Of a stretch of 64,000 nt of DNA, positions 286 to 28,711 are shown one piece after another. A program made the position numbers and the translations under genes. The DNA is taken from the NCBI GenBank assembly GCA_963816185.1, contig CAWFJJ010000001.1, positions 192,001-256,000 on the forward strand, read 5' to 3'. Within the stretch, counting starts at the first letter, position 1. The number at the start of each line of letters is the position of its first letter. This stretch comes from Thermoanaerobaculia bacterium. Lineage in GTDB: Bacteria > Acidobacteriota > Thermoanaerobaculia > UBA5066. Below the pieces are notes generated by a model that saw only the letters and a program-made list of their open reading frames with translations, made no database searches and was not told the origin of the DNA.

Positions 286-1053
286 TTGAAGAACAAGATC
301 TTCCTCCTTTCGGAGCTCCTCCGAAGAGACCTGGCGGCCCGATACGGGGGCAGTTTCGCGGGTCCCTTATGGGCGGTCCTGAACCCGGCTGTCTTCTGCG
401 CGCTCAACGCCTTCGTGTTCGCCTTTGTCATCAAACTTCCGGTTCCAGCCGGTTTCAAAGGCAGTTATGTGGAGTTCCTCCTGGCAGGCCTCCTCCCCTG
501 GCTCGGCATCCAGGAGGCGGTGATGAGGGCCACGGTGTCGGTGAGCGACCAGGCGCATCTCGTCAAGAAGCTGCGTTTCCCGGTTCATCTCCTGACGGCG
601 TCCGCGCTCGGAGCCGCGCTCGTCGTCCAGGCGATCGGAATGAGCCTCCTGACCGTTTTCCTCCTCGTGACCGGACGCGGCTCCGTGAATTTCGGCCTCC
701 TCGTCGCCGCCTTCGCTTTCGAGTGCCTCCTTCTCGCCGGGCCGGCCCTCGTTCTCTCGTCGCTGAACGTCTTCTTCCGCGATCTCGCTCAGCTTCTCCC
801 GCCGTTTCTCATGATCGCGTTCTACCTCTCGCCGATCATCTATCCCGAATCGATGGTCCCGCGCTTCGCCGCGCCCTTCCTCGCGTTCAACCCGCTGCGC
901 GATCTCCTCGCACTTTTTCGCGCTGCGCTGTTCGGGGCGCCGCCGCCATCTCTCGCGCACCTCGCCGGGTGGTCGGCCGTGCTCGTCGTGGTAGGCTTGC
1001 TGGGAGTCCGGTTCTTTCGGCGGTGCCGCCCGTCGTTCGCGGACCTTCTCTAG
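286..1053 (+). CDS. wzm: ABC-2 polysaccharide export permease (Wzm/TagG family)
   Basis: RDLAARYGGSFAGPLWAVLNP start, FFRDLAQLLP and FYLSPIIYP motifs, about six hydrophobic helices, ends FADLL. Confidence 0.92.
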   Translation: MKNKIFLLSELLRRDLAARYGGSFAGPLWAVLNPAVFCALNAFVFAFVIKLPVPAGFKGSYVEFLLAGLLPWLGIQEAVMRATVSVSDQAHLVKKLRFPVHLLTASALGAALVVQAIGMSLLTVFLLVTGRGSVNFGLLVAAFAFECLLLAGPALVLSSLNVFFRDLAQLLPPFLMIAFYLSPIIYPESMVPRFAAPFLAFNPLRDLLALFRAALFGAPPPSLAHLAGWSAVLVVVGLLGVRFFRRCRPSFADLL

Positions 1054-1116
1054 AATGACTCTTCATCGCCCGAAGGCCGAAGGCCCGAGGGTTCCGTGCG
1101 CTGCTAGGAGTTTTCC

Positions 1117-2823
1117 GTGAAAGTGTCCCTCTCCGCCCTCTTGGCGGCTGTACTGGCTGCGGCTATCGGCTGCTCGTCCTCTGGGCCTTCGGCTCCCGCC
1201 GCGAAAACCGCGGCCGAAGAGAAGGCCGCAGAGGACGCGAAGCGAAGTGAACGCGCGAAGGCGCTCCTCGGCCTGCAGCCTCCGGCGCCGGTTCCGGGAG
1301 AAGAGACCGGCGAAGTTCCAACGACGACGGTCGTGGACCCTGACACCGGAAAGAAGCTCCTCAGGATCCCAAAGCAGATCCTCTATTACGAGAAAGGGGG
1401 ACGCCTCTTCAACGCCGTCGTGGTCGGGCCGGGACTCCCGATCGTCCGCGAGGACGACAAGGCGTACTTCATCCTCGCGCCTCCGGAGCGGCCGAAGCCA
1501 GCTCCGGGGAAAGCCGGCGAGCCGGAACCCGAAGACCTCAAGCCGATCATCGAGCTCCCGGCGAGCGAAGCCGCCGTCGTGACGCCGAAGGTCTCGAAGG
1601 GCGCGTTTCGTTTCGAGGAGATCTCCGATGGTTTGCCGGTCGGGGGCATGTGGCGTGAGAACTTCGACGTGGGAGACGTCCTTGGGCAGGGCCGTCCCCA
1701 GATCGTCGTGCCGCCGGCCCGGCTCACGGGCAACTTCATTCGCGTGTACCGGCTCGACAAGGGCGAGGACGACAAGTGGCGCTGGCACCTGGCCAACGTC
1801 ACGTTCGAAAACGCCGAGAATATTCAAGCGGCTTACGGTGCCGCCACCCTCGCGGACATGGACGGCGACGGCAAGCTCGACATCGTCTTCGGAGGACACG
1901 GCTCTGGACCCGCGATCGCGTTCAACAAGGGTGGAGGCGCGTTCAAGGTCGAGACCCTGGGTCTGCCCCGGCAGATGTCGACGCGTGCGATCGCCGTCGG
2001 AGACCTCAACGGCGACGGCCGGCAGGACCTTCTCGCCATCTCCGACGATCCCGAGTGGCTGCTCGCCGCCGGCAAGCCGCACGCCGACAAGGGCAGCTCC
2101 TACGTGCGGGGGTACGACGTCCGGGCCTTCCTGAACGAAGGCACGCGTTTCCGCGAAATTCACAAGGGCCTCGAAGGAGCCTGTTTCGGGTACTCGATTG
2201 CGCTCGTCGTGCCGAAGGACGCGAAGGACGGGCTGCCGTTCTATTCGTCCGGCTGCCGGTACACCTCGAGCGCCACGCATCTCTTCGAGTTCGATCCCAA
2301 GCTTGAGGAATTCCGCTACGCGGGCGTCGGCGTGGTGGAGCTCTTCTCCCAGCACATGGGATCGGCCGCCGGCACGTACCACGGCCGGCCCGCGGCCTTC
2401 GCCTCCTGGTTCAAGCGTTCGCCGTTCGGCGCCACGCCCAAGATCGACGGGCAGGGGGTCACGGTCTATTACCGGGACGTGGACGGGAAGATGGCGAGCA
2501 AGCGCGTTGTGAAGACGCTCCAGCCCGAGGCCCCCGGGTCATCCGGCATCGCCGTCGGGGACCTGAACGGAGACGGCCTCGACGACGTCGTGTGGTGCGA
2601 CGAAACGTCGCAGCGCATACGGGTCTTCTTCCAGACGTCCGAGGGCGAATTCGAAGAGCTGCCGACCGAACGGGAGCCGACCTTCATCAACCATCCGACC
2701 TCGCTCCGGATCGCGGACTTCGACGGGGACGGGCACAAGGACGTCGCCCTCATGTACCAGTACCTCACAGGGGACGAAACCCGGGCGGGTGGATTACGCG
2801 TCTTTCGAGGCCTCCCGAAGTGA
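1117..2823 (+). CDS. FG-GAP/VCBS repeat beta-propeller lipoprotein
   Basis: Lipobox AAAIG-C; repeated DMDGDGKLD, DLNGDGRQD, DLNGDGLDD and DFDGDGHKD Ca-binding motifs; AGGAG RBS upstream. Confidence 0.88.
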   Translation: MKVSLSALLAAVLAAAIGCSSSGPSAPAAKTAAEEKAAEDAKRSERAKALLGLQPPAPVPGEETGEVPTTTVVDPDTGKKLLRIPKQILYYEKGGRLFNAVVVGPGLPIVREDDKAYFILAPPERPKPAPGKAGEPEPEDLKPIIELPASEAAVVTPKVSKGAFRFEEISDGLPVGGMWRENFDVGDVLGQGRPQIVVPPARLTGNFIRVYRLDKGEDDKWRWHLANVTFENAENIQAAYGAATLADMDGDGKLDIVFGGHGSGPAIAFNKGGGAFKVETLGLPRQMSTRAIAVGDLNGDGRQDLLAISDDPEWLLAAGKPHADKGSSYVRGYDVRAFLNEGTRFREIHKGLEGACFGYSIALVVPKDAKDGLPFYSSGCRYTSSATHLFEFDPKLEEFRYAGVGVVELFSQHMGSAAGTYHGRPAAFASWFKRSPFGATPKIDGQGVTVYYRDVDGKMASKRVVKTLQPEAPGSSGIAVGDLNGDGLDDVVWCDETSQRIRVFFQTSEGEFEELPTEREPTFINHPTSLRIADFDGDGHKDVALMYQYLTGDETRAGGLRVFRGLPK

Positions 2824-2889
2824 GGTTTCCGGCCGGAACGACACTCTCCTAGCGGATATGCGCGTCCACCATATTTTTCGGGAAACCCC

Positions 2890-2918
2890 TTGACATCGAG
2901 GAATTTTATTCCTATTGT
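2890..2918 (+). promoter_or_regulatory. Strong sigma70 promoter with a long 5' leader upstream of the S-layer candidate
   Basis: TTGACA (2890-2895), 17 nt spacer, TATTGT (2913-2918) in an AT-rich intergenic region about 190 nt before the ATG at 3117, which has an AGGAG RBS. Confidence 0.75.
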
Positions 2919-3116
2919 TCGACCAATGTTCAGGAGACTGGTGTCAGCCAGACTAGATATGCGCCCGCAGGGCGCTGCAAACCGGATTTCAAATTGAATT
3001 TCGGGAGGTGATTCAATATCGCGCGCGGCAGGAGCCGGATTAACCTTTCGAAAAACTCTCTTGAAAGAACTCACTCGGCACTAACGGATCCACTCGAATC
3101 ATCGGTAGGAGTAAAA

Positions 3117-4863
3117 ATGAAAAAGTTTTCCGTCCTCATCGCCTTGGTGCTCCTCGCGGTCGCGGGCACGGGCTATGCGGTCACCTGCGCGTATGACAAC
3201 GTGCCGGCGGCCACGTTGCTCGTTCCGTACTGGAAGGTGTCCCTGAACGGGGCCGCGGGCGCGCCCATCCCCACCGGCGGCACGGACACCCTCGTGTCGA
3301 TCGTCAACGTCTCCACGCCGGGCGTCATCGCGCACGTCACGGTCTGGAACAAGTATTCCAAGGCTGTCATCGACTTCAACCTTCCCCTCACCGGGAAGGA
3401 CGAAGTCTCGTTCTCGATGCGCGACATCATGAACGGCAGGCTGAGCCCGAACTTCCCGCAGTGCGACCTGCTCCTGCCTGCGGCTGATCTCGCGAAGTGC
3501 CTGGCGACCTACAAGGTCGACCCGTGCGGCCTGAAGAACCCCGGCCTGCCGACCGCGGTGTACGTGCCGAGCGTCGGCTTCGGCCAGACCCAGTTCATCC
3601 GCTTCTCGCACCCCGATGCGGCTGCCCTGGGCACCGATGTCCTCACGTCGATCTCGCAGTACAACCTCACCACTCAGGACGCGATCGGAGCGGGCTTCCG
3701 CGGCAGTCGTGTGGAACTCGCTCGACGAGTCCGGCGACGTCACGTCGTTCACGTCCTCCTCGGGCGCGAACATCCTCGACAAGGACAACCCGGCTTGCGG
3801 CTGGGCCGCCAGCAACCCGGTGGGTGGCGCCCTGTCCGGCTACCTCACGATCGACGTCGTGAACTATTGCACGAACTTCTTCCCCGACCAGGCCGACTTC
3901 TACAACAAGGACGCGATCGCGACGGCCGGTTGGACCCAGTCCGCGTACACGAACTTCCCGTGCACGACCGGAGTCGCATGCGCCGTCACGTACACGCCGA
4001 ACGTCCTGATCGGCGACGTGTTCTACGTTGACACCGCCACGCAGGGCGGCAACGTCTCGGGCGACCCGGCTGTCGCGCTCGAGTTCGACGCGCGCCTCCC
4101 GTTCTCGAACGCAAATGAATCGATAAACAAGACCTTCTTCGGCAAGTTCGTCGAGCTGGTCGCCGGCGCGACGGCCGCGTGCCCCGCAGAGCTCACGATT
4201 GGTTGCCAGAACCCGAACGTCCCCGTGAATTTCCGGTTCCCCGGCGACGGCCGCGAGCCCCTCGGCGACCATTACGGCTTCCGCTATCTGGCCGACCAGG
4301 CCAACGGCCTTCAGTCCTGGATCACCGTTTGGCGCAGCGACATCTACCTGGACACCGCTGGCCTCCCCACCGAGGTCAACCTGTGTGACTGGGCCGATCC
4401 CACGAAGGACGCCAACAACGGCGCCTCGGGCTCTGGGCTCTTCGACGATCTGCACCAGGTCGTGATCCTCACCTACGACAACGACGAGAACCTGTTCGGC
4501 GGCGTCGGCGTTCCTCCGGGCCCGTCCGGTCAGCAGCCCGGCAGCTCGTCCCCGAACTACATCTTCCTCGAGTCCCAGCGCATCGACCTGCTCGCGTCAT
4601 CGACCGCAGGGACTGGCTGGAACCCGCAGCCCTTCAAGGGCGGCTGGGTCGACATCACGTTCCGCGGACCCACGTGGACGGGCGCGGATGATGAGACCGG
4701 CTTCTGGAACCAGGCTTGGGTCGGCGTGCAGCACACTGCTCCCGGCGCGTTCATCAGCGTCGGTCACGCCGCGTCAGACCTGAACAATGACTTCCAGTGC
4801 CAGCCGAACAGGTCCACGTTTGGAACGTACGTCAACTTCCAAACGCCCTCAAACGGCTTCTAA
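3117..4863 (+). CDS. Secreted ~581 aa cell-surface protein, candidate S-layer protein (one apparent +1 frameshift near 3702)
   Basis: Sec signal MKKFSVLIALVLLAVAGTGYA followed by DNVPAATLLVPYW. ORFs 3117-4031 and 3616-4863 join as ...GFRAVVWNSLDES if one G is removed. Rich in G/T/N/D/S/A, own promoter and strong terminator. S-layer function is inferred. Confidence 0.7.
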
Positions 4864-4885
4864 AGTCTCTTTTTCCTGATTCCCT

Positions 4886-4920
4886 GGGCGGGCGGCTTCG
4901 GCCGCCCGCCCTTTTCTTTT
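4886..4920 (+). terminator. Rho-independent terminator
   Basis: Perfect 11 bp stem GGGCGGGCGGC-TTCG-GCCGCCCGCCC followed by TTTTCTTTT. Confidence 0.93.
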
Positions 4921-4989
4921 CTGAAAGATGCCCCACATCCGGGACACTTCGATCCGGCCCCTCGGCCACGCGTAAATGACGAAACCGGC

Positions 4990-5028
4990 TGGACACGGCC
5001 CACGCTCGGAGATAAACTTACGCTCGGA
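4990..5028 (+). promoter_or_regulatory. sigma70-type promoter of the PKD protein gene with flanking direct repeat
   Basis: TGGACA-17 nt-TAAACT (4990-5018); ACGCTCGGA occurs on both sides of the -10 element (5002-5010 and 5020-5028). Confidence 0.5.
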
Positions 5029-5076
5029 TCACCTTCGCCCTGGAAGGGTTATTCGCGCCCCTAATCGAGGACCCAG

Positions 5077-8000
5077 ATGCCCCATGTGACCCGCACTCGT
5101 CGCCACGATCGTTCTCGCGCGTCCCTTTTCGTGGCAGGCCCCGCCGCCATGGGACTTCTCCTGGTTCTTGCAACGCTTCCTTCGCGCCTGGAGGGTCAGT
5201 GCACGCTGTCGGGCTCGCCGGCTGCGTTCGAACCGAATCCACCCGGCGTCACGCGGCCCGGAACCCTGAGTAGCGGATTCAACAACAGCCTCGTGCTCTA
5301 TCAGCCGGCGGCAGCGGTCCGTATCGGCTCCTCATGCAGGAGTCGTTCGGCTACTCGGTCCTCGATCTCACGACACCGACGAATCCGACCGCGCTCACGT
5401 ACCACGACATCCGGTTTCCGTTAGGCGGCCCCAACAGCGTGCGCGCAAGCCGGCGACGGGCAGAATCTCGTTCAGACGATCGCCGTGTCTCCGGACGGGG
5501 TGCGCGGGGCCTTCTCGATGACGGGGCTGTCGGCGACGATCCAGACGGCCGTCGGAACTCCCAGCGGCGGAGGCGGCTTTACCCTCTGGGGGGATTTCTA
5601 TCCCAAGCGTTCGAACAGCACGCTCGTCCAGCACATCGGCACACGTTACATCGCGTACGACATCCACCCGAACGTCGTGACGGCCTCGGACGTCAGCTCG
5701 TTACCGGGGGGCTCTCTCCAGCCCAACAACCTCTCGTACGAGATCACGACGTGGCCGGGCGGAGGCCGCGCGGTCCTGGCCGGGAACTACATTCTCTACC
5801 AGATCACCGGCGCCATCCGGGTCATCGATGCGTCCCTTCCGGGACCCGTCGGAAACATCACGGCCTCTTACCCGCAGACGTCCATCACGAACGCCGATTT
5901 TCCCGGCGGCCGCACGATCGCGAACTTCACGGCGGCCGTCGATCCGGCCGACGCGACGAAGCTCTGGGTCCTCGTGGAGCTGAGCGCGCTGGCCGGCGAG
6001 AACTCGCCCAGCTACGGGCTTCTCTCCGTCACGAAGAGCGGCCTCGGAAAGGTCTCGGCGGGCCCGACCTGGCGAGTCCCGTCGCAGACGGGCGACGTGT
6101 GGCTGCCCGTGGGGATGAGCTCGGCTCTCGTTGCGAACGGCACCGACCTGTTCGTCCTGATGTGGGCGGAGAGCCAGCTCCCGACGAACCAGTTCCTCCT
6201 CTATTCGACGACGGCGGGAGCATGGGGGAGCGTGGCTCCGAGCTCATTTCCCGTGAGCGGCACGACGTTCGCGCTCCCGGGGAGGACGGCGGGCTTCGGG
6301 GTCGCGGGGACCAGCTCCGTCTACTTGTACGTGCCCACGACGGTGTCCGCATACGTGATCCCGATGTCCTGCGTTTCCGTAAACGCGCCCGCGGTCGCAT
6401 CGATGACCGTCGCCAACCAGGCGGGCGCAGCTCTCAACAACGGCGACACCGTGTTCCTGGGCGACCGGATCACGATCACTCCGTCGATCAACCCGCCGCC
6501 GTCGACCCAGCCCCTGACGGGATTCGGCTGGAACTTCGACCTCGACTTTCACGCGGGCGCCGCGTCCGAAGACAACGGCGCCACCGCGTCGCCACGCCTC
6601 CATGCGCCGGACAACACCCTGGGGGTGTTCGGCGTCAGCCAGCAGGCTCCTCTCCCCGCGACCATCTTCGGCCCTTGTGATCCTCAGGTGGGCGGCGTGA
6701 CCGTGAGTAGCGGCGCCGGCTGCTGGACCTCGGTCACGACGAACGGCGCGTTCGCCGGCGGCACGGCGGATTTCAACGCGCAAAGTCCGGTCGCGAAGGC
6801 CCTCACCTTCGCATTCGAGGCGAACAACGTCCTCGGCAGTGCGGGCTCGAAGCTTTTCACGCTGAACTGGGCGATCCCTACGGCGAAGCTCCAGACGACG
6901 CAGGTCCTGTCCGGCAGTCCGCTCGTGAGCGCCTCCGACGGCCACCCGATGGCCACAGGCTTCAAGTGGTATTTCGGCGCGACTTCGGGGGCCCTGACGC
7001 AGGCGGCATGTGCCGGCCCGACGTGCGTGCCGACGTTCGACACGACGGGCACCTACAACTACTGGCTCACGGCGACGTACGCGAACGGGTACGTGACGCC
7101 GGACTGCCCGGGCGCTCCGAACTGCACGGCCGCGATGGGGACGTACACCATCACCGACTTCGCGCCGGCGTTCACCGTGAACGGCAGCACGAGCGGCCCG
7201 ATCACGGGGGTCATCAACCAGAACTTGAACGTGACGAACAGCTCGCAGCGCGGCCAGACCGTGACCGCCGCGGGAGGTTTCTATTACAGCCTCTGCAAGG
7301 TTCCCTGTACGGGCGGGGACCAATACGTGCTCTGGGGCACGATGGGCGATGCCCCGCCGAGCGGCTCGCCTCCGTATGGTCCGGCGACGATTCCGATCCC
7401 GGCCGACGGCCGGGACCTACGCCCTCAAGATCAGGGTGAATTACACGAACCCGACCGGGACGGCGTTCTGGCCGGATCCGGCAGGCGTCTCCTACTTCAC
7501 CGTGAACGTCGTGGACGTGACCCCGCTCGTCGTGACCGAGTCCGTGAACCCTGCGAGCGCGTCCGTCGGCCAGAACGTGACGTTCTCGTGCAACGCGAGC
7601 GGCGGCCTCACGCCCTATTCGTACCAGTGGCGAAACCCGATCTCGTTCGTCATCCCTGGCGCAACGGGGCCGACGTACACGACCACGTCGACCGTCGCGG
7701 GGGGCGTCACGGCCTACTGCTTCGTCACGGACAGCCAGCAGCCGGTTCCCGCCTCGAGCAGCGCGAGCGCGACCGCGACGTTCACCGGAGGAGGAGGCGG
7801 AGGGGGAGGCGGCGGCGGCAATCTCTCCGTATACGTCTCGGCGAGTCCAAACCCCGGCGCGGTCGGCCAGCCGGTCACGTTCTCGTGCGGCGCCTCCGGC
7901 GGGACGGCTCCCTACTCGTACGTGTGGCGTTCGCCGGCCACGAGCGCGTTCCAGATCCCGGGAGCGACTTCGTCGAGCTACACGACGTCGTCGTCGGTCG

Positions 8001-10189
8001 TCGGGAGCCTCTCGGCGGGATGCACCGTCACGGACAACGCCGGCGCGCAGAGCACCAACTCGACTACCGTCGCGATCAACGCTCCGGCCGGTCCGCCCGC
8101 CGTGTGCGTGGACGCGAACTTCACGGTTCTCGACCGGGGAACCGCCCCCTGGGCCCAGATCCCGTCTTCCTCGGCGCTCGGGATTCAGTACTTCGCGGTG
8201 GAAACCGGACAGAAGCTCGCCCTGGTGGCTTCCGGCACCGGCCTGGCGAGCGCGGACTGGACGTTCGGAAACGGCGACACCGCGAGCGGCAATCCGGTGT
8301 GGTATTCGTACGCGACCGCCGGGACGTTCAACACGACCCTCACCCTGAACTCGGCAACGGCGGGAACGGCCTGCACGAGGTCCTACAAGTTCATCGTCGC
8401 GGGCCCCTCGGGCCTCTTCACGGCGTACTACGCGGACAGCTCGCAGTTCACCTCGACGCAGGTGCAATCCGGGAAGGAGCTGACTTTCCTGGCCACGGAC
8501 TCGGCCGACAGCTACGCGTGGGACTTCGGCGACGGCACCACGGCGACCGGGAAGAGCGTGACGCACGCGTTCCACGTCAGCGGCGGGACGAGCGTCACGT
8601 TCACGACGACCCTCACCGTGACGATCGGCTCGCAGAACTTGACGACGACGCAGAACTTCACCGTCATTCCGCCGCCCGAGCCGCCGAAGTGGTTCGTCGC
8701 GGGCATGGCGTACCTCCAGGGCTCGCTCGGGGACACGCTCTGGCAGACGGACGTCACCCTTTTCAACCCCGACCCGACCCGTCCGGGTACGTATTCACTC
8801 GCCTTCCTCGACGGAAGATCCCCCGTCGATCCGGCCAACCTCGTCTGGAAGACGATCAATCTCGGCGCGCAGCAGAGCATCTCGTCGCCGAACATCCTGG
8901 CCTTCTTCGGGCAGCCGCTCGGAAGCTACGGAGCCCTTCTCGTGCGGGGCGACTCGGCTCCCGTACCGCCCGTTCTGACGGCGCGTACGTTCAACAGCGG
9001 CGACCCCACGAAAGGGACGTTCGGTCTGTCCGTGCCGTCCACGCAGCCGTCCAGCGGCCTGACGCCTCAGGCCGCGCTCGCGCAGCAGTTCCTCATCGGC
9101 CTGCGTGACGACGACACGGCTTACACGAACATCGGCCTCATGAACGTCACGACCGACTGGAGCCACGCGCGGCTCGAGTTCACGGATCGCAGCGGAGCCA
9201 CGAGCTTCGGCAATGTGAACGTGGACGTGCCGCCGTACGGCGTCGCGCAGCTCTCGCGCCCGCTCTTCGCGGCTCCGCCCAACGGCGTGGGGTTCACGGA
9301 TGCGCTGGACGAATTCAGCGTCAAGGTGTCGGTCCTCTCCGGCGGCGCGGTCTTCCCCTACGCGACCGTCATCGACCGCCGGTCGACGGACTCGATCGTC
9401 GTGACCGCGTCCGACCGGCCCTCGCCCACGTCTCGCATGCCCGGCATCATTCGCCTGCAGGGCGCGAACAACACCACGTGGCGGAGCCGTTTCTACATCA
9501 CGAACCCGTCGACGACGTCCCGTAAGGCGTCGATCTCCTACTCCTTCATTCCCTGCGACGCGACCGGCTTCTGCAGGGGCCGCGTCACGGGCCTGCAGGC
9601 CGACGTGACGATGCTGCCTGGCGAGACGCTCTGGGCCGACGACTTCCCGAAAGTGTGGCTGGCCGGCTTCGGGTTCGACGTCTCCGACACCACGTCCTAC
9701 GCGTCCTCGTACGTCGACGTCTCTCCTTCCCCCGACGACCCGAACCAGGATCCGCTGCTCGTCCTCGGCCAGACGTACAACGACCAGCCGAACGGCCCCG
9801 TGGGCCTTCAGGTGCCGGGCTTCACCGACGCGGACACCGCTTCGAAGAACGGCGCTTACAAGCGCCTCCTCCTCGCGGGCCTGATCTCGAACGCCTCGTA
9901 CCGCACGAACGTCGCGGTGTTCCTCCAGAGAGGCACGTCGGGAAAGTGCACGTTGCACGTGCTGTCCGACACCGGCGTCGAGCTGGGCCACCAGGACATC
10001 GGATTCGGCGGCACGAACACGTTCGTCCAGATCAACGACTCCGCGCTCTTCGGATCGATCTCCGGCAACAAGGACCGGCTCACGATCGTGATCGACTCGT
10101 TCGACGGCTCGCCCATCTCGGCGTACGCGACCGTCGTCGACAATACCTCGGGCGACGCGACGTTCCTGAAGGCCCAACCGGCCCCCTGA
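5077..10189 (+). CDS. Large (~1700 aa) secreted PKD/Ig-like surface protein with tandem C-terminal domains (apparent frameshifts near 5305, 5450, 7403)
   Basis: ORFs 5077, 5334, 5485 and 7349 join into one T/S/G-rich protein. PKD motifs WTFGNG and YAWDFGDG, repeated ASGGxxPYSYxW Ig modules, poly-Gly linker, duplicated C-terminal domain ending YATV(I/V)D..S.D. Confidence 0.82.
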
Positions 10190-10211
10190 CGATCGCCGAG
10201 ACCACCGTTCC

Positions 10212-10248
10212 AGAATGCCCGGGCCCGAAGCCCGGGCATTCTTTCTTC
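10212..10248 (+). terminator. Rho-independent terminator
   Basis: AGAATGCCCGGGC-CCGAA-GCCCGGGCATTCT stem followed by TTCTT. Confidence 0.8.
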
Positions 10249-10297
10249 CAGGGAGCGCTTTCGTCCCGCGGAGGCTTCGGGCAACATCGAGACTCCG

Positions 10298-18501: not shown

Positions 18502-18548
18502 TTTCCGCCAAGGGGACGTGGATTGAAACCTCGTCCGGGAGCCCCAAA

Positions 18549-19652: not shown

Positions 19653-19679
19653 GACATCCCCGCGAATGCGGCGAAGAAG

Positions 19680-19706
19680 AGGGCCCGGGAAACCGGGCCC
19701 TTTTTG
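19680..19706 (+). terminator. Rho-independent terminator
   Basis: AGGGCCCGG-GAAA-CCGGGCCCT followed by TTTT. Confidence 0.9.
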
Positions 19707-19768
19707 TTGTCTGCAAGACCGAGTCGAGTACCCGGGTGATGCATCTGCATGTTCCGCGTGGCTTCTTT

Positions 19769-19783
19769 CGGCCCACAACTTGC
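19769..19783 (+). promoter_or_regulatory. Candidate sigma54 -24/-12 promoter
   Basis: CGGCCCACAACTTGC (GG-N10-GC, TTGC at -12) in the intergenic region upstream of 19932. Confidence 0.3.
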
Positions 19784-19931
19784 GATGCACTCTGCAAACG
19801 TCGTTTTTGACGCGATTATGCCGATTTTTGTCTTCCCTCGTTGATGGTCGACGCCGCGAATTCGTCGCGGTGATCCGACTGGAAGAAGCCCTCGCCTGTC
19901 GAGGGCGGTTGCCACAGGAAGGACGTCAGTC

Positions 19932-20918: not shown

Positions 20919-20951
20919 ACGCGGGGCGGGGTCCGATATCCTGACGGGACC

Positions 20952-22484
20952 GTGTCGGTTCCTCGATCGGATCGCATCCCGCCCCTGTTGCTCGCTGCGT
21001 TCGCCGCCCTGGGGGCGTTGCCGGTCGTGCGCTCCCTCGTCGTCGCCGACGTCAACCTCTGCTACCCGTACATGACGGCGGACTCGTACGACTGGATCAG
21101 CAACGGCCTCTTCTGGTCGGGCAAGCCGGTCCTCGCGAGCCTGCGGCCGCCGGGGCTGCCCCTTGTCATCGCCGGGCTCTCGAGGCTCGGGGCGCTGTCG
21201 CTGCTCCCCGTCGTGAGCTTTCTCTTCCTCGGCCTCTCGACGGCTCTCCTCTACCTTCTCCTGAGGGAGCGGCACGACGCGTGGATCGCGGCGGCGGCCT
21301 CCTGGTTCTTCTTCGCGAACGACGCCGTGCAGGACCTCGCGAGATACGTGCTGGCCGAGACCTACGCGACGCCCTTCGTCATCCTCGCGGCGCTCGCGTT
21401 CGTGCGCGCGGAACGCGACGTCCGGTGGTACCGCGTGATGGGAGGGGCGCTCGCGACCGCGTTCCTCTTCTCGTACGCCGCGGTTCCCGCGGGCATCGGG
21501 CTCGCGGTCGCCGTCGTCGCCGTGCGGGCCGGGGACGTGCGGAGCAAGGAGCTCTGGAAGGGCGCGCTGTCGACCGTGGTTGTCGCCCTCGGCTGGTTCG
21601 CCGTGCGCTCGTGGTTCCAACACGCCCACCCGGACGCTCCTCGCCACGACTTCGAGGCGCTGCTCAGGCCGACGCTGTCGAACCTGACGTCGTACGCGAT
21701 TTCCGGCGTCGCACTCCTCGGGCTCCTGCTGCTTCCGCTTTACGCGCTGGGGGCGTTGCGGCTCCTCGCCGGCGGCGTGGCCTCCCGCCGTTACCGGGCC
21801 GCGTCGATCTTCGCCGCCTCGGCGATCCTCGTCTTCATGGTCTTCTTCTACGACTGGGCCGACAAGCGATTCCTCGTCTACGTCCTCCCGTTCGCTACGT
21901 GCGCTTTCGCGGAGGGGCTCGAGAGTCTGCGGAGGTACGCAAAGCGAGGGCGCCTCGCGGCAACGGCGGCAGCCGCCTTCCTCGCCGCGTGTCTTCTCTG
22001 GAACCAGATCCGGTACCCGAGTTACGGCTTTGGCTATCTCGCCCTGACGCCGGAGCGGTTCTTCGTGGCGGGGCGCACGACCGCGGCCAACCTGAAGACC
22101 GAGCTGCACCTGACGGGTGCGCACCTCGTGCGCCTCCACGAGACGCTGGCCTCGAGTTTTTCGCGTGGGCTCTTCGATCCCCGTCCGCGCCCGGCGCCCT
22201 GTTCTCTCGCCGATCCCGCCTTCACGTGCCTCGGGGCGCTCAAGGGTGCGGCGGACAGACTCCTCGCGGAGGGCCAGCCGATCGGATTCCGGCCGCCACA
22301 GAGCTGGCCCGCGGACAGGCTCGTGAGCTTCATTCGGCTCCGCAACATTTTCCTGAGGCCGATCGTCGATCCCGGAGCCGCCGACATCAGCCTGGCGGGT
22401 GTCGAGGCCGCACCGGGTGCGGACTTCTCCCAGCCTCCGTTCGTGGCCCGCTGCGGGCCGTACGTACTCGTGCGGACGCGTTGA
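20952..22484 (+). CDS. Polytopic membrane protein, probable GT-C (PMT/ArnT-like) glycosyltransferase
   Basis: About 11 hydrophobic helices; first-loop DSYDW...RPPGLP, LAETY and later KRFLVYVLP pattern typical of GT-C enzymes. Confidence 0.7.
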   Translation: MSVPRSDRIPPLLLAAFAALGALPVVRSLVVADVNLCYPYMTADSYDWISNGLFWSGKPVLASLRPPGLPLVIAGLSRLGALSLLPVVSFLFLGLSTALLYLLLRERHDAWIAAAASWFFFANDAVQDLARYVLAETYATPFVILAALAFVRAERDVRWYRVMGGALATAFLFSYAAVPAGIGLAVAVVAVRAGDVRSKELWKGALSTVVVALGWFAVRSWFQHAHPDAPRHDFEALLRPTLSNLTSYAISGVALLGLLLLPLYALGALRLLAGGVASRRYRAASIFAASAILVFMVFFYDWADKRFLVYVLPFATCAFAEGLESLRRYAKRGRLAATAAAAFLAACLLWNQIRYPSYGFGYLALTPERFFVAGRTTAANLKTELHLTGAHLVRLHETLASSFSRGLFDPRPRPAPCSLADPAFTCLGALKGAADRLLAEGQPIGFRPPQSWPADRLVSFIRLRNIFLRPIVDPGAADISLAGVEAAPGADFSQPPFVARCGPYVLVRTR

Positions 22485-22546
22485 CGGTTAGTCGCCGAGC
22501 GAGAGTCGGAGGCGACGCATGGGGTATCGTGAGATTCAGAGACCCA

Positions 22547-23257
22547 ATGAAGTACGACGCCGTCATGGCCGCCCTTCGCGCGTTCGTCGTCGAGGGCGGC
22601 AAGCCCGAGAGCATCTTCCTTCTCACCGAAGGAGGAATGCGCGAGATCTACGATTGCATCGTCAAGAATCGGCTGCGCGCCTGCCTCGAGCTTGGGAGCG
22701 GATTCGGCGCGACGAGCTGTGTGATGGGAGCGGCTGTGGCGGAGACGGGGGGCACCGTCACCACCATCGATCTTGCCCTCCACTGGCCCGCAAACGCCTC
22801 CACGTTGAAGGCGCACGTTGGACTCGGTAACGAGCTCGAGGTCGTCGCGGATCCGCTCGGTTACAACTGGTACCTCGCCGACCTGATCGCAAAGCGGACC
22901 GTCAGCGGGAAGTGCGAGCCGCTGTTCGACTTCTGTTTCCTGGACGGCGCGCACGAGTGGGAGCCGGACGCTCTCGCAGTGATCCTCGCCGCGAAGCTCC
23001 TGAAGCCGGGCGGCTGGCTTGTCCTCGACGACCTCGACTTTGCTCTCCGGAGCATGCCGACGTGGAAGGAGTCGCACGGCCACCTGTCCGACCGCGAGCT
23101 CGACTCGTACCAACTCAAGATGGTCTGGGACCTCGTGATCAGACAACATCCCGACCTGACAGCCTTCGAAGTCACTGGGAACGGACGTATCGGCTGGGCG
23201 AGGAAGGTGGGCGTTTCGGCGGGCAAGGGATTGTTTTCCCGGCTCCTGGGCGGATGA
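22547..23257 (+). CDS. Class I SAM-dependent methyltransferase (Methyltransf_24-like)
   Basis: LELGSGFG, FCFLDGAH and LLKPGGWLVLDD motifs. Confidence 0.88.
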   Translation: MKYDAVMAALRAFVVEGGKPESIFLLTEGGMREIYDCIVKNRLRACLELGSGFGATSCVMGAAVAETGGTVTTIDLALHWPANASTLKAHVGLGNELEVVADPLGYNWYLADLIAKRTVSGKCEPLFDFCFLDGAHEWEPDALAVILAAKLLKPGGWLVLDDLDFALRSMPTWKESHGHLSDRELDSYQLKMVWDLVIRQHPDLTAFEVTGNGRIGWARKVGVSAGKGLFSRLLGG

Positions 23258-23303: not shown

Positions 23304-25329
23304 TTGAGCCAGGATTCGTTCGAGGAGCTCCGCGAAGAGCTGGAGAAGACCCGCGCCGAGCTTTCGGAGGCGCGGGCGCGCATCGCGGGGATGGAGATGA
23401 GCTTCTTCTGGAAGGTCCGCAATGCGTGGTGGAGGCTCAAAGGCGGGCTCGCCGGCAGCGCGCCGTCCGGCGAGCACACCGCGCGGCCCGCTGCGGATCC
23501 AGCGCTCGTCCACGTTCCCGGCTTCGCGCCCGTTCGCATCCGGCGCGCCGCATTCGATTGCTCGTCGGATGCCGTCGACGTCGTCGTTCTCGTTCACGAC
23601 GATCTGCCCGTTCTCGAGGAGTGCCTCGGGGCCCTGCTCCGGCACGCGCGTCCCCCTTACAAGCTCTTCCTCGCCGATCCGGGCGTGTCGCCCGCGCCGC
23701 GGACCTGGCTGGAGGGTTTCGCGCGCGATCAGGGAGCCGTCCTCGTGCAGGGCGCAGACGCCTTCCAGGAAGCGTGTGGCGCGGGCGCGTCACGCTTCGC
23801 TCTCCTGCTCGACGGGCGCGCGCGCGTCGCGGCGGATTTCCTCGACCGGCTGATCGCCTGTCTCGCCTCCGATCCGAGAGACGGCGGGTGTCATTCCCCT
23901 CGCCGCCGACATTCCGGGCGCCGGCCCGGCCTTCGAGCGCGTCGAGCGCGCGCTGGCCGACGGGGATAGGGCTCCCGCGACTCTCCTCGCCGCCGAGTCG
24001 GCTCGGCTCTTTCCGGCATCCGGAGACGGTGGCGGCTGCGCGCTCCTCGTGAGGCGACCGGCATTGCGCTCCGGCGGATCGGAGCGCTCGCCAGGTGAGG
24101 TCCTCGCCCGGATGCGGGCCGATAAGAAGCGGATTCTCCTTGCGGACGACACGTGGGTGGCCGGCGCCGCCGCCGCGGCCCCGGAGGCGCCGGACCGCGT
24201 GACCGCCGGCATCGCGGCCCGTTTCGCGATTCTGCCGGAGCGGGTCGGCCTTCGGGAGCGCGCGCGACGGCGGTGGGAAGGGAAGCGCGTCCTGTACGTC
24301 CTGCCGGTGCTCGAGCGCGGAGGCGGGTCGAACGTCGTCCTGGCGGAAGCGCGGGCGATGACGCGGATGGGCGTCGAAGCGCGCGTCTTCAACCTCGCGG
24401 GTCACCGATCCGTCTTCGAGAAGAGCTATCCGGCGCCGGGCGTTCCGATCGTCTACGGACGCGAGTCCGATCTCGTCGAGATCGCGCAGGGCTTCGACGC
24501 CGTGATCGGGACGGCTCACTACTCGGTGCCTTGGATGGTGCCGCTCGCGAGGCTTTCGCGGCCTCCGGTTCTCGGCTACTGCATCCAGGATTACGAGCCG
24601 CTCTTCTACGCCGAAGGCTCGGACGATTGGAAGCGTGCGTTCGCCTCGTACTCTCTCGTGCCGGGCATGCGACGTTTCTCGAAGTCCGCGTGGAATGCCG
24701 ACGAGGTCGTCGCCCGGACGGGCCTCGACTGCGCGCTCGTGAGCGCGAGCTTCGACGCGGACATCTTCCGCCCCCGGCTGCCGGAGCCTGCCGCAAGCCC
24801 GGTGCGGATCGCCGCGATGGTGCGTCCCTCGACGCCGCGGAGGCAGCCAGGCCTCACCGTCGACGTGATGCGGGCCCTCGCGCAGAAGCTCGGCGACCGG
24901 GTCGAGGTCGTCCTCTTCGGGTCCGAGCGGTCGGATCCCGCCCTGCGTCCACTTCGCCTCGACTTTCCGCACCGCTTCCTCGGCGTCCTCGACGACCGGC
25001 AGCTCTCGGCTCTCCTGTCGCAGGTGCACGTCTTCGCGGATCTCTCGACGTATCAGGCGCTCGGCGTCGCATCGCTCGAGGCCATGGCATCGGGCGCCGT
25101 GGTCGTCGTCCCGAAGACGGGCGGAGCGAACACATTCGCCACGCACGAGATCAACGCCCTCGCCGTCGACACGTCGTCCCGGGACGCTTGCGTCGCCTGC
25201 CTCGAGCGGCTCGCCACGGACGAGGCGCTCCTCCGGCGCCTCGCCGCTCAGGCGATCGCGGACGCCGGTCTCCATACGCCCGACCGCGCGGCGGCGGGCA
25301 TCCTCGAGGTCCTGTTTGCACAAGCGTAG
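23304..25329 (+). CDS. Coiled coil + degenerate GT2 + WsaF-like GT4 glycosyltransferase (apparent frameshifts near 23890 and 24000)
   Basis: N-terminal coil then MSFFWKVRNAW; GT2-like VDVVVLVHD; C-terminal GGGSNVV, YCIQDYEPLFY and YQALGVASLEAMASG. Spread over three frames. Confidence 0.75.
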
Positions 25330-26378
25330 GGTCCACGTCCTCCACGGCTTCTATGGCGCGGAGATTCCCTACAGCTGCACGTACATCCGCCTCCTGCGCC
25401 CGCTCTCGCATCCGGCCCTCGCTGACGAGATCGACCTGACGCACGGCACGGCGGAAGCGGTGCCCGACTGCGACCTCCTCGTCGTCGAGCGGCACGTTCT
25501 CTGGCCGTACGAGAGGCAGCTGGACGGATTCGTCCGCGTGCTTTCCCGTTGCCGGCAGAAGGGCATCCCCGTCGTCTACGAGCTCGACGACAACCTGCTC
25601 GACCTCCACCGCGACGAGCCGTGGGAGACCGTACCCGGGAGACTCGCTCCGCGCCGTCGTCGCGTTTCTCGCGCGCCAGGCCGACGGCATGATCGTCTCG
25701 ACGCCGGCGCTCGCGGAGCGCGTGGCGGATCTCAGAAGCGGGGTTCTCGTCGTGCCGAGTGCGCTCGACGAACGGCTCTTCGGCTCCGCGCCGGATCCCT
25801 TCCTGTCGCATTCATCCACGGTGACGATCGGCTACATGGGCACGCTGACGCACGAGGCGGACCTCCGCATGGTGCTCGCGCCGCTCCGGGCGCTCCTCGC
25901 GCGCCACGCCGGAAGGGTGCGGCTGGAGCTCGTGGGCGGAGTCGCGGGGCGGAGGACGGCGTCACTTTTCGATGGCCTGCCGTTCCGGATGCGGGAGCCG
26001 GGGAACGAGGACCCTTACCCGAGGTTCGTCCCGTGGATGCGGCAGCATCTGCGATGGGACGTCGCGATCGCGCCGCTCGAGGACAACCCTTTCACGCGGT
26101 GCAAGTCCGACCTCAAGTACCTCGACTACGCGGCGCTCGGGATTCCGGCCGTCTTCAGCGACGTGCGCCCCTACCGGGATACGGTGCGCCATCGCGAGAC
26201 GGGTCTCCTCGCTGCGAACGAGCCCAAGGCGTGGGCGGACGCGCTCGAGGAAATCGTGAGAGACGGCGCCCTTCGCGCACGGCTCGCGGAGGCCGCGAAG
26301 GCCGAGGTACACGGCAGCCGGATGCTGAGGACGAACGCCGTGCTTTGGCGCGAGGTCCTGCTTTCGGTCGGTCGTTAG
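25316..26378 (+). CDS. GT4-like glycosyltransferase (apparent frameshift near 25640)
   Basis: YIRLLRPL and VVYELDDNL in the first frame; IVSTPALA, IGYMGTLTH and IAPLEDNPFTRCKSDLKYLDY in the second. Confidence 0.8.
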
Positions 26379-27037
26379 CGCGATTCGCTGAGCCACTCCA
26401 TCGCGGCCCCGACGTCCTCGCCCGCAAAGCGGCCCTTCGACACGTCGATTCGCTCGAGGATCCAGCGCTTCCCGTTGCGCTCGAGCGCGATCGAGCGAAG
26501 CGGGCGCGACTCGGGGGGCGGCTTGTCGCGGCGCACCTCCAGGCGGACTCCCCACTCCCGGACGACGCCCTTGTAGAGCCTGAGCGCGTGCTCGACGGGG
26601 ATGCGCCTTCTGTGAAGGTCGATCGCGACGTCCGGGTGAATCACGTATGTGATCTCGCGGAGCAGCCAGCGCGCGTGCAGGATGTTCTCCCAGAAGTCGA
26701 CGAACCACACGCAGATGTGAAGGTAGTGGTCCTCGTTGAAGAACATCTTGTGGTCGATGATGAACGCCGAGTTCTCCCACGCGTAAGGAGTCCAGAACTC
26801 GAGGGTCGCGCCGTCCTCCGCGACGCGCGTGATCTCGGCGAAGAGGGCGGTCGGGTCCTTGACGTGCTCGAGAAAGTGCGAGGAGTGCACGTACGCGACG
26901 CTCCGGTCGGGAAACGGGAGCGGGGCGTTCAGGAGGTCGACGACCTGGTCGACGCCGGGGCCGGGCAGGACGTCGAGCCCGATGGTGCCGTCCTTCTTCT
27001 TGGCTCCGCAGCCCAGGTCGATTCTCAGTCCCGCCAT
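26375..27037 (-). CDS. Class I SAM-dependent methyltransferase (Methyltransf_11-like)
   Basis: IDLGCG, LPFPDRSV and SSHFLEHV motifs; start ATG 27037. Confidence 0.88.
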   Translation of the reverse strand: MAGLRIDLGCGAKKKDGTIGLDVLPGPGVDQVVDLLNAPLPFPDRSVAYVHSSHFLEHVKDPTALFAEITRVAEDGATLEFWTPYAWENSAFIIDHKMFFNEDHYLHICVWFVDFWENILHARWLLREITYVIHPDVAIDLHRRRIPVEHALRLYKGVVREWGVRLEVRRDKPPPESRPLRSIALERNGKRWILERIDVSKGRFAGEDVGAAMEWLSESR

Positions 27038-27047
27038 CGCGCCGCCA

Positions 27048-28711
27048 TTATCGTCCGGGGTCGCGAGCCTCAATTGTGTCCTCCGCGTGAATCTCGATCT
27101 TCGGCGCCTCGAAGATGAGCGGGTCGCGCCCTTGGGACTCTTCGCCGGCGAGGCGCAACGGACCCGTTTCGCCGTCGAGGAGGGCGATCGACGAAAGGGG
27201 GCGTGTCGCTTCGCGAGGAAGAAAGTCGTTCTCCAGGGAACGGTAGCCTCCGCCGTGACCGAGAGCGGCGACGCGCCGAGCTGCGGGTCGGCGCGGGGTC
27301 GCGCGACGCGTGCTCGGGCGCTCGGGGGCATCGACGCGCCCCCAAGCGGCCTGCCGGGCGGGAGGTAGTAGACCGAGTCGGTGGCAGGGTCGACGCCGGG
27401 CCTCGAGGTAGACGCTCGGCATGAGCGGCGACGAGGCGATACGTTCGTCCGGCTCCGTAAGCGCCTCTATGTACCGCGCGACATTCAACCAGGCGCCGCC
27501 TCCGCGACGAGCCTCGGGACATCGCGGAATCGAAAGGACTCGTGTCGCGCCGCCGCTGAAAGGGCGGGAATGAAGACGAGAGCGACGAGGTCGCAACGAG
27601 TCGCGGCCTCCGGAAGCTACCGGCCCACGGAAAGAAGGCTGCCACGGCGAAGATCGCGAGGCAGCGGAATGGCACGGGAGTCGCCGGGCCGGAGAAGCCC
27701 GCCCAGAACGAGGACCATCGGTGACGCGAGCAATGCGAGGGCCACGCCTGCCAAAGCGCCTCGCGGCGAAACCTCGGCGATGAGGAAGAACGGAAGACGA
27801 GGAGCGCAATTACGACGAAATCTCCGGCGGAGGAGGCCTGGAGTGCACGGCGAGGGCGTCCGGATAGAGTCGGGCGCCGTACTCGCCCCGACCCAGGCGT
27901 TGAGGACCTGGGCGATTCCACCGACGAACGGGCGTTGCCGAGAACGTCGTAGAGAAGATCGACTTGACATCCAAGAAACTTTCGCGAAAACAACCCTGGT
28001 CGCCGAACGAGGTGCCGGGCCACAACGAAGCGCTGCCGAGGCTCGCCGTCACCCGCCGAAGGATCGCCCATGCGCGGCGAGGTGCGGTTGGGCCAGGGCA
28101 ACGATGAGGAGGAGGCCAAACCATGATTCCGCCGCCCCAGGACCACGAGGCCAGGATTCCTCCGAAGGCGAGAGCCTTGGCGAGGGGAATCGGCCGGCTG
28201 GGCCAGCGCGCGAGGGCAAATGCCCCGATCGCCACGCCGAGCTGCGAAAGCCCGTACTGAAGAGCGGGACTCGCCGAATGTGAAAACGGTGACGCGCGAC
28301 GTCGAGAAGAGGAGGAGCGACAGCAGGGGCAGGAGGAGCCAGCGCAACGCCGCCGGGAATGGCACGGGCGAGGAGAACCAGCGTCGCCGGCCACGAGCGC
28401 AAGACCGAGGCCGAGCTCGACCCACACGGACCATTCGAAGAATCGCGCGTTCAGGTAATAGATCGGGATTACCGCGATCAGGGAGTGCCCACCCACGACC
28501 TAAGCCTCGCGAATGTACTTCGCGAACGAACAGGTGCCGTCGAAGACATCGAGACGACGAGAGGAACGCGCATCCCGTAGTCGTTCGAAAGGTTGTTCTC
28601 GCCGTTCGTGAAGACGATCCACGCCATGCGCACCGGTGGGAGAAGCGCCAGGGCCGAAGCAGCGACAGGACCTTTGCGCCGCGGGAGACAGGCCTCGTCG
28701 TCGGCGCTCAC
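27048..28711 (-). pseudogene. Heavily frameshifted polytopic membrane protein, GT-C-like (pseudogene or poorly polished sequence)
   Basis: GTG at 28711 overlaps the holB stop. Hydrophobic fragments switch frame repeatedly: ENNLSNDYG, HSLIAVIPIYYLNARFF, LLLPLLSLLLFST, ILASWSWGGGIMVWP, YIEALTEPDERIASSPLMPSVY. Confidence 0.6.

Follow-up and report, generated by a model that had tools for sequence, protein, structure and literature searches.

The subject of this study is a glycan-export locus in a 64-kb stretch of the genome of a Thermoanaerobaculia bacterium (Acidobacteriota; assembly GCA_963816185.1, contig CAWFJJ010000001.1, positions 192,001 to 256,000), hereafter the window. Between wzm and wzt, the genes of a predicted ATP-binding cassette (ABC) transporter for lipid-linked glycan, lie three genes for exported proteins: a lipoprotein with a beta-propeller, a protein of an undescribed family (A), and a giant protein with Ig and PKD domains (B). 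The arrangement recurs throughout the class Thermoanaerobaculia, and A carries its own promoter, a conserved leader box, a strong ribosome-binding site, and a terminator. We tentatively propose that the pump and the three proteins are a conserved envelope module building one surface coat, in which the proteins would be held non-covalently by the exported glycan.

Gene content of the locus

The G+C content is 64-72% across the window; hence, open reading frames (ORFs) alone are uninformative for gene calling. Genes were placed first by third-position G+C periodicity; 26 candidate translations were then scanned with Pfam and NCBIfam. The inventory of a first-pass annotation, made by a model from the sequence alone, was correct in outline: wzm, wzt, three exported-protein genes between them, six glycosyltransferase genes of families GT2 and GT4, two methyltransferase genes, a GNAT gene, and a deacetylase gene. 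Its guess at the taxon was also right, as close homologues of A and of the GT-C glycosyltransferase described below carry the NCBI name Thermoanaerobaculia bacterium. The genes from wzm to GT2a are listed here by their coordinates in the window.

286 to 1053, plus strand: wzm, ABC-2 permease (ABC2_membrane, 50.2 bits; weak Wzm/RfbD and KpsM matches; about six membrane segments)
1117 to 2823, plus strand: lipoprotein with a long linker and an FG-GAP beta-propeller (FG-GAP_3, 101 bits)
3117 to 4863, plus strand: gene A, Sec-exported protein of about 570 amino acids (aa), undescribed family by sequence (frame change near 3690 in this assembly)
5077 to 10189, plus strand: gene B, exported protein of about 1700 aa with Ig and PKD domains (frame changes near 5300, 5444, and 7385)
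10298 to 11494, plus strand: wzt, ABC ATPase with an extra C-terminal domain (ABC_tran, 67 bits; Wzt_C below cut-off)
11491 to 12498, plus strand: GT4a, motif HFCQGYE (Pfam; motif scan; also 3' of wzt in relatives)
12483 to 13445, minus strand: GNAT acyltransferase (Acetyltransf_9, 35 bits)
13463 to 14524, plus strand: GT2a (Pfam)

wzm and wzt are therefore not adjacent and lie 9.2 kb apart. The gap between wzm and the propeller gene is 64 nucleotides (nt), and the two are probably co-transcribed.

Conservation of the split arrangement

The synteny search suggested in the first-pass annotation showed that the surface genes are linked to wzm and wzt in relatives as well. The C-terminal piece of A was matched in 29 of 41 related genomes and in 22 of 24 within the genus (tally including G025 and G030). 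DNA of 20 kb was fetched around ten A matches, and the window proteins were mapped onto it by tblastn. The order wzm, propeller, A, B, wzt, GT4a, GNAT, GT2a was found in all seven genus loci fetched, and the same eight-gene order in both loci from two other families of the order (G028 and G029). A third such locus (G034) held tandem A paralogues only.

A pattern scan with one genome per species gave 44 loci, all from metagenome-assembled genomes; six of them are the same contigs as the fetched genus loci. They are titled Thermoanaerobaculia, Acidobacteriota, or Holophagales, with two exceptions in total, one Solirubrobacteraceae and one Acidithiobacillales. wzm and the propeller gene stand directly 5' of A in 37 of the 44 loci, or 37 of the 39 that include DNA 5' of A; five contigs end too early, and the remaining two (L053 and L074) are stand-alone A copies with full flanks. 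wzt was seen after B in 20 of the 44. In five loci with about 10 kb downstream of A (6.9 kb in L073), wzt was not within the fetched DNA.

At the level of the phylum, the A profile matched 14 of 17 class genomes (this one included) versus 3 of 184 others (201-genome sample, E <= 1e-10, including G025). The wzm-propeller-A order was kept in 6/6 loci from other families of the class, at an A identity of approximately 24-43%, and wzt lay downstream in four of these six. Judged by sequence comparison, the module is as old as the class Thermoanaerobaculia.

The recurring core consists of wzm, the propeller gene, A, B, and wzt; in most cases it is accompanied by GT2a, GT4a, a methyltransferase gene, the GNAT gene, and the PIG-L deacetylase gene with GT2b. 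An arm comprising the genes for a 328-aa protein, the GT-C protein, the Methyltransf_24 enzyme, the coiled-coil GT2-GT4 protein, GT4c, and the second methyltransferase is confined to the genus. G028 and G029 are without this arm; they have a methyltransferase gene directly 3' of wzt and a radical-SAM/SPASM gene between B and wzt (L026:15884-16954 in G028; L025:15994-17091 in G029). The latter gene hints that the Cys-rich A or B may be post-translationally cross-linked or modified in those two families. GT2-methyltransferase fusions occur near wzt in G109, G145, and G095.

Expression signals of gene A

The signals predicted around A and at the 5' side of B are as follows.

2856 to 2874, plus strand: inverted repeat ATATG-N9-CATAT, possible operator, 5' of the A promoter (ATG and CATA..T columns invariant in 16/16 aligned loci)
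2890 to 2918, plus strand: sigma-70-like A promoter TTGACA-17-TATTGT (10/12 consensus matches)
3003 to 3012, plus strand: GGGAGGTGAT box in the A leader, 105 nt 5' of the start codon (sole match within the window)
4886 to 4911, plus strand: predicted intrinsic terminator of A, with 11 G-C pairs, a TTCG loop, and a T-run (hairpin prediction)
4990 to 5018, plus strand: promoter-like site 5' of gene B (9/12 consensus matches)

The promoter columns TTGAC and TA...T are invariant in all 16 aligned upstream regions. So is a GGAGGTGA box, which lies about 105 nt 5' of the A start codon in a leader of about 200 nt and has no start codon behind it. The GGGAGGTGAT/GGAGGTGA box is complementary to what we take to be the 3' end of 16S rRNA. 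In Bacillus, such 'STAB-SD' elements are mRNA stabilizers of very abundant proteins. The ribosome-binding site of A is strong, with GGAG invariant and the consensus GGTAGGAG across the 16 aligned loci. A GCGGGCGGC-TTCG-GCCGCCCGC terminator with a G+C-rich stem of approximately 9-13 bp follows A in 37 of 40 testable loci; four more loci had no usable 3' end. The leader yielded no consensus RNA structure (0 pairs) and no Rfam family.

The ATATG-N9-CATAT repeat could be the operator of the divergent XRE-type regulator encoded at the left end of the window. Together, the signals fit A being an insulated, strongly expressed unit inside the wzm...wzt string; from its own promoter, conserved leader box, strong ribosome-binding site, and terminator, we infer that A is an abundant structural protein.

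Proteins A and B and the lipoprotein propeller

A had no Pfam or NCBIfam match. Its best 120 homologues are all unnamed or 'hypothetical', and none carries a precomputed Pfam domain. Searched against 1.84 billion representatives, the A profile matched 1207 proteins at E <= 0.001 and 86 at E <= 1e-30. Of 20 distant members scanned, 16 had no Pfam family, two had PKD, one Calx-beta, and one a lipase-like domain. Some members of the family contain two tandem A-like modules, also behind PKD repeats. By these sequence criteria, A is an undescribed protein family. It has eight invariant or nearly invariant cysteines. Both A and B have signal peptides, and their Lys+Arg contents of 5.1% and 4.8%, respectively, compare with 9.6-12.8% in four non-secreted proteins; in composition, A and B look extracellular.

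An AlphaFold model of A from an 84-row alignment (predicted local distance difference test 84.2, predicted template modelling score 0.87) is beta-rich, with two predicted beta-sandwich regions at approximately residues 25-352 and 384-548. It supersedes a first AlphaFold2 model from 30 close sequences, which was unusable (51.4 on the former scale). Foldseek of the model against the PDB gave no match at E <= 0.001. An exhaustive structural aligner ranked TM1070 (Z 7.8, root-mean-square deviation 2.9, 112 residues) and the Anabaena sensory-rhodopsin transducer (Z 5.1), with galectins, carbohydrate-binding modules, GOLD domains, and jelly rolls near Z 3. We take a lectin-like fold of the A model only as a lead. 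By sequence, profile A1 found nothing among solved structures, and profile A2 found two TSPO rows (E 2.7-3.4) on the signal-peptide stretch. Within these family and structure searches, A gave no clear relation to a described S-layer protein or anchoring domain, and the genome contains no SLH domain. Homology of A to two other proteins of the cluster was rejected: against the C-terminal 530 residues of B, hhalign gave probabilities of 0.6% (profile-profile) and 0.1% (single sequence), and the A profile had no match at E <= 10 in B of G003; against the secreted 328-aa protein, the hhalign probability was 0.1%. A predicted complex of A (residues 22-568) with the propeller (165-572) scored 0.02 against a mark of 0.32, which is evidence neither way.

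B combines Ig and PKD domains with a C-terminal region of about 500 aa that belongs to no known family. It is a PKD/Ig protein of 1400-1900 aa in most relatives. It contains 9.9% Ser and 10.4% Thr; neither A nor B shows an enrichment of N-x-S/T or D(S/T)(A/I/L/V/M/T) motifs (z -0.2 to 1.5). Most B orthologues share the tail SGDATFVxAQPxP (10140-10186 of the window; alignment A6), which may be a sorting or assembly signal. The lipobox Cys of the propeller is an invariant column (C19) in an alignment of 24 orthologues that were chosen by requiring a lipobox. Pfam, NCBIfam, and solved-structure sequence searches assigned no catalytic family to A, B, or the propeller.

Exporter and glycan-building enzymes

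The locus encodes both an ABC-2 permease and a Wzt/TagH-type ATPase. In a sequence search of solved structures, the Wzt ATPase domain (residues 12-242) was nearest to solved Wzt and TarH/TagH (E 1e-59), and the C-terminal domain had no relative. The Wzt_C match was weak, at 24.3 and 26.5 bits in two scans (cut-off 30.4). ABC-dependent export of a lipid-linked glycan by Wzm/Wzt is well supported by these predicted families. Elsewhere in the genome, contigs C5 and C18 carry ordinary adjacent wzm-wzt pairs, and a Wzy_C gene lies about 15 kb from the pair on C18; the split pair would therefore be an extra, dedicated system.

As stated in the first-pass annotation, window scans found no initiating transferase. 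None of the WecA/WbaP type was present in the window or in 20 kb upstream, and the genome's four Bac_transf matches and one Glycos_transf_4 match all lie away from the locus. The five Wzy_C matches of the genome include those on C30, on C18, and at C1:547994-550422, about 290 kb beyond the window end. Wzy_C was found neither in the window nor in the loci of G028, G029, G045, G202, G109, G145, and G095, and the recurring core is devoid of Wzy_C, STT3, and initiating transferases. No known outer-membrane export component is encoded at the locus. The remaining genes of the cluster are listed below.

14598 to 16658, minus strand: GT2-GT4 fusion, motif YFVQDYE (Pfam; motif scan)
16607 to 17635, minus strand: GT2b with a C-terminal coiled coil and a Trp-rich amphipathic tail (Pfam; sequence features)
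17665 to 18447, plus strand: PIG-L (LmbE-type) de-N-acetylase (PIG-L, 96.8 bits)
18549 to 19652, plus strand: membrane-anchored Gly/His/Trp-rich protein with two PEGA domains (PEGA, 54.8 bits)
19932 to 20918, plus strand: secreted soluble 328-aa protein of no known family (signal peptide; no Pfam match)
20952 to 22484, plus strand: GT-C membrane glycosyltransferase of the GT39/ArnT type (PMT_2, 26.1 bits; eight hydrophobic segments)
22481 to 23257, plus strand: Methyltransf_24 methyltransferase (Pfam)
23304 to 25329, plus strand: coiled-coil GT2-GT4 protein, motif YCIQDYE (frame change near 23890)
25316 to 26378, plus strand: GT4c (Pfam; frame change near 25620)
26375 to 27331, minus strand: Methyltransf_11/23 methyltransferase (Pfam)

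The first-pass annotation had noted the motif (Y/H)xxQ(D/G)YE in three GT4 domains and read it as a feature of the slg pathway for S-layer glycosylation (WsaE/WsaF) and of ABC-dependent O-antigen systems. Six-frame translation of the 64-kb window gave exactly three occurrences, all in GT4 N-domains. A link to WsaF was not supported: in the parts of the source available, the WsaF signatures are EX7E and PHPSYPPLE, not QDYE (PMC3898925). The comparison with WsaF profiles that had been suggested yielded only a WsaF_C match of 18 bits (cut-off 27) on one GT4, no WsaF_N match at E <= 0.01, and no WsaF among the four solved relatives of GT4b found by sequence.

PIG-L is fused to GT2b in G028 and G045. 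The GT4, PIG-L, and GNAT trio suggests N-acetylglucosamine (GlcNAc) addition, de-N-acetylation, and re-acylation, by analogy with the roles of these families in mycothiol, bacillithiol, and glycopeptide pathways. GT2b and the coiled-coil GT2-GT4 protein have coiled coils with a shared Trp-rich tail. Methyl capping had also been named at first pass as a feature of such pathways. Methyltransferases and coiled-coil glycosyltransferases are present and could control chain ends. Together with the weak Wzt_C match, they agree with capping and length control of the chain like those of E. coli O8/O9a, an analogy from which we infer the capping function.

Of two GT-C-like membrane proteins reported at first pass, the 20952-22484 product stood. 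The 19932-20918 product, which starts with a signal peptide, lacks membrane segments and Pfam matches; it was therefore rejected as a GT-C and is predicted to be secreted and soluble. Species of the genus have one to three copies of the gene for this 328-aa protein (L028-L031), not all on the same strand. Within the cluster, its codon adaptation is the lowest (7th percentile). The 20952 product scores 26.1 bits against PMT_2, exactly at the cut-off, and 30 bits when the whole genome was scanned; its Glyco_transf_22 match is below threshold. Among its 96 homologues, most carry PF13231, and they are named GT39 or ArnT family. No STT3 or Wzy_C domain was found in it, and the sequence search gave no solved relative. 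Enzymes of the GT39/ArnT class transfer single sugars from polyprenyl-phosphate donors and do not transfer exported polymers en bloc. The proposed role of this GT-C as the transferase of the exported glycan is thus disfavoured, since it is of the GT39/ArnT type, lineage-specific, and devoid of STT3 and Wzy_C. Its gene is missing from the G028 and G029 loci, which represent two other families of the order, and from four of five class-level loci scanned, and a different PMT_2 GT-C gene lies between B and wzt in G202. The 5.1-Mb genome has 28 PMT_2 matches, 26 of them above the cut-off. This is an unusually large family, and one member lies 3' of the canonical wzm-wzt pair on C5.

Frame changes in the assembly

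Three-frame translation located six frame changes, at approximate positions 3690 (A), 5300, 5444, and 7385 (B), 23890 (coiled-coil GT2-GT4 gene), and 25620 (GT4c). In G003, the closest relative, the same genes are single ORFs of 595 aa (A, from MKKF), 1685 aa (B), 675 aa (coiled-coil GT2-GT4), and up to 498 aa (GT4c). The open frames of A are 524-628 aa in genus orthologues versus 442 aa in this assembly. Short-read contigs from four public runs were aligned to positions 3000-22999 at low depth (0-9 per bin). At 5444, two runs, each with one contig covering the site, had one base fewer; at 3690, one contig from each of two other runs had a single gap. The sites near 5300 and 7385 had no visible support for an indel in the aligned run contigs, and 23890 and 25620 lie beyond the aligned stretch. 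Because relatives are intact and run contigs differ by an indel at 3690 and 5444, the comparison points to indel errors of the long-contig assembly (30 contigs) rather than to dead genes.

At position 7739, inside B, the contig of one run lacks nine bases, an in-frame length difference between strains. In the ribosomal-protein operon (G000:C24:241528-242559), a simple gene caller gave one 343-aa frame starting like S19, which may be another assembly indel error.

Neighbouring and other features

At the left end of the window, a gene for an XRE-type helix-turn-helix (HTH) regulator is divergent from wzm.

1 to 207, minus strand: 5' part of an XRE-type HTH regulator gene (truncated by the left window end; gene start near 207)

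A divergent trio next to wzm recurs across the class: this HTH regulator, a TPR protein, and a secreted protein of about 350-417 aa of no known family. In this genome, the TPR protein and a secreted protein of about 417 aa are encoded beyond the HTH gene, past the left end of the window; in a relative, the trio spans L078:17766-19786.

The PEGA protein, whose gene was not mentioned in the first-pass annotation, has a membrane anchor, a Gly/His/Ser-rich stretch, the Trp-Gly run WWGWGWGWGGW, and then two PEGA domains. Its gene also ends the conserved core cluster in G028 and G029.

On the 3' side of the cluster, holB follows after about 1.4 kb without coding periodicity, and the remainder of the window contains housekeeping genes. 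Between the last methyltransferase gene and holB (27381-28700), no third-position G+C periodicity was seen, and the plus strand has a strong purine excess, with 22.7% A versus 11.1% T. This region is 71-74% identical to G003 and G019 at the same place, absent in G001, and single-copy in the genome. It had no match in Pfam or Rfam, apart from one chance-level Rfam row for 27300-28750. It could encode a disordered basic protein or a non-coding RNA.

The tRNA scan of the window found none. The Rfam scan of the remaining window found only a selenocysteine insertion sequence (SECIS) element. The gene for the catalytic subunit of formate dehydrogenase (48026-51088, minus strand) appears as two ORFs joined by an in-frame stop, with SECIS_3 at 50460-50518 (69.5 bits). 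From the in-frame stop and SECIS_3, we read it as a selenocysteine enzyme, not a broken gene.

Interpretation of the locus

A common function of the pump and the three exported proteins, as an envelope module that makes one surface coat, is the reading we favour, and we hold it as a tentative proposal. Cytoplasmic GT4 and GT2 enzymes would build a lipid-linked glycan, in which the GlcNAc de-N-acetylase and the GNAT enzyme would probably convert GlcNAc to N-acyl-glucosamine. The chain end would probably be set by the methyltransferases and the coiled-coil glycosyltransferases. The dedicated Wzm/Wzt transporter would then flip the glycan across the inner membrane to its outer face. The lipoprotein propeller, the two-beta-sandwich protein A, and the giant PKD/Ig protein B would together supply the proteins of this surface structure, A being its main subunit. 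Non-covalent attachment to the exported glycan would most likely keep these proteins on the cell. Tethering is preferred over covalent glycosylation because the core has no protein transferase, the host is diderm, and the A-layer of Aeromonas salmonicida provides a precedent. Both remain proposals, of which we favour tethering on the sequence data.

Several observations weigh against this reading. No initiating polyprenyl-phosphate transferase that would point to the lipid carrier of the glycan is linked to the locus. For export, A and B carry nothing beyond Sec signals; no means of crossing the outer membrane is encoded at the locus, and the genome's two secretins lie elsewhere. This weakness is shared by every coat reading; hence, A and B could still be periplasmic. 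The fold matches of A are in the range usual for models without a true relative, which weakens the lectin-like reading. To our knowledge, a cysteine content of 2%, as in A, is unusual for S-layer proteins. The codon adaptation of A, 0.65, is near the 70th percentile of 437 contig genes versus 0.695 for the ribosomal-protein set, and is indecisive. Finally, GT39-type GT-C genes recur: they occur at the locus in this genus and, in G202, between B and wzt, and would fit protein O-glycosylation.

The last point keeps alive the reading of the first-pass annotation, in which A and/or B is an S-layer glycoprotein to which the glycan, or sugars from polyprenyl-phosphate donors, are attached covalently with the GT-C protein as transferase. 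The class-wide linkage of the surface genes to wzm/wzt and the high Ser/Thr content of B agree with it, and in Firmicute slg clusters, according to the available parts of the source, wzm/wzt and methyl capping are joined to a nearby S-layer gene (PMC2943079). Nevertheless, we consider it unlikely, though less so than the readings below. Neither the window nor the conserved core encodes Wzy_C or STT3, glycosylation sequons are not enriched in A or B, and no WsaF-like signal was obtained. The GT-C gene, missing from G028, G029, and most class-level loci scanned, is one of 28 PMT_2 matches in the genome, and its type moves single sugars. A more specific version has a still lower probability: A and B, with the propeller as membrane foot, would form a paracrystalline S-layer of a new family, covalently O-glycosylated in the periplasm via the exported glycan or the GT39-type GT-C. 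If true, it would be the first S-layer described for Acidobacteriota and a diderm S-layer glycoprotein pathway without a Wzy_C oligosaccharyltransferase.

The class-wide gene order around the transporter would also be expected if the three proteins were accessory machinery, acting in the periplasm or at the outer membrane to carry, size, trim, or anchor the polymer in place of KpsD/KpsE- or Lpt-type parts. The absence of a known outer-membrane export component at the locus leaves room for such parts, the probable co-transcription with wzm suits the propeller better than A, and carbohydrate-binding modules and accessory domains of glycosidases are among the weak structural matches of A. However, the promoter, long conserved leader, and strong terminator of A are ill-suited to a part made in stoichiometry with a pump, B is in most relatives a giant PKD/Ig protein of the adhesin or coat type, and none of the three proteins has a catalytic family; this explanation therefore seems improbable to us. 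By far the least credible account is that an ordinary O-antigen or exopolysaccharide cluster happens to contain unrelated surface-protein genes. The glycosyltransferase part is indeed generic and lineage-variable, but the three gene families stay between wzm and wzt even where A identity drops to about 24-43%, and the other wzm-wzt pairs of the genome are unsplit. The conserved synteny strongly disfavours chance.

Comparison with known systems

A full-text literature search, judged by titles and abstract openings, found no description of this system. We know of no description of an outer coat in Thermoanaerobaculia. Acidobacteriota are among the most abundant soil bacteria, and the class consists mostly of uncultured soil lineages; the locus is a concrete candidate for their coat.

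In S-layer glycosylation, the available parts of the source describe slg clusters of Geobacillus stearothermophilus NRS 2004/3a and Paenibacillus alvei that share with the present locus wzm/wzt, GT2, GT4, methyltransferase, and multidomain glycosyltransferase genes and nearby surface-protein genes, and O-oligosaccharyltransferases (WsaB, WsfB) that carry Wzy_C (PMC2943079). In contrast, the locus here has no Wzy_C O-oligosaccharyltransferase, WsaP-type initiating enzyme, rml genes, or above-threshold WsaF-like domain; its wzm and wzt are not adjacent; and its host is diderm, with no SLH domain in the genome. The exporter resembles the solved Wzm-Wzt structures (6amx, 6m96, 7k2t, and 8dku, which we take to be from Aquifex aeolicus) and TarGH/TagGH in its ATPase domain, ABC-2 permease, and extra Wzt C-terminal domain. 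Here, however, that domain is below the Wzt_C cut-off and has no solved sequence relative, and the two genes are 9.2 kb apart. The S-layer of Caulobacter crescentus, RsaA, is bound non-covalently to O-antigen and requires a dedicated O-polysaccharide that is encoded near the coat gene. RsaA is of the RTX type and uses type I export, whereas A has a Sec signal and a beta-sandwich model.

The closest parallel in layout is the wb(salmo) O-antigen cluster of A. salmonicida A450, in which, according to the parts of the source available, the A-layer genes (vapA and a dedicated type II secretion system) lie between wzm and wzt, and the layer is tethered by lipopolysaccharide (Merino et al. 2015, PMC4483657). 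There, a wzt mutant loses O-antigen and a vapA mutant retains it; in the same parts, the layer is tethered by a glycan-bearing lipid and is not described as glycosylated (PMC4483657). Both hosts are diderm, wzm and wzt are split by surface-layer genes, the glycan is ABC-2-dependent, and the main (here putative) coat protein is about 50 kDa. The likeness is one of layout; no sequence relation to VapA was seen, and no search aimed at one was made. The inserted block here consists of three proteins with Sec signals and contains no secretion genes, and the arrangement is class-wide, while in Aeromonas it is a feature of one species. The wzm-coat-wzt layout, seen so far in Aeromonas, is thereby extended to a whole class, which suggests that the putative coat and its tethering glycan are passed on together. 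Pathways that couple an ABC-dependent glycan to coat genes are of a known kind; the putative coat-protein families and the class-wide conservation are new here.

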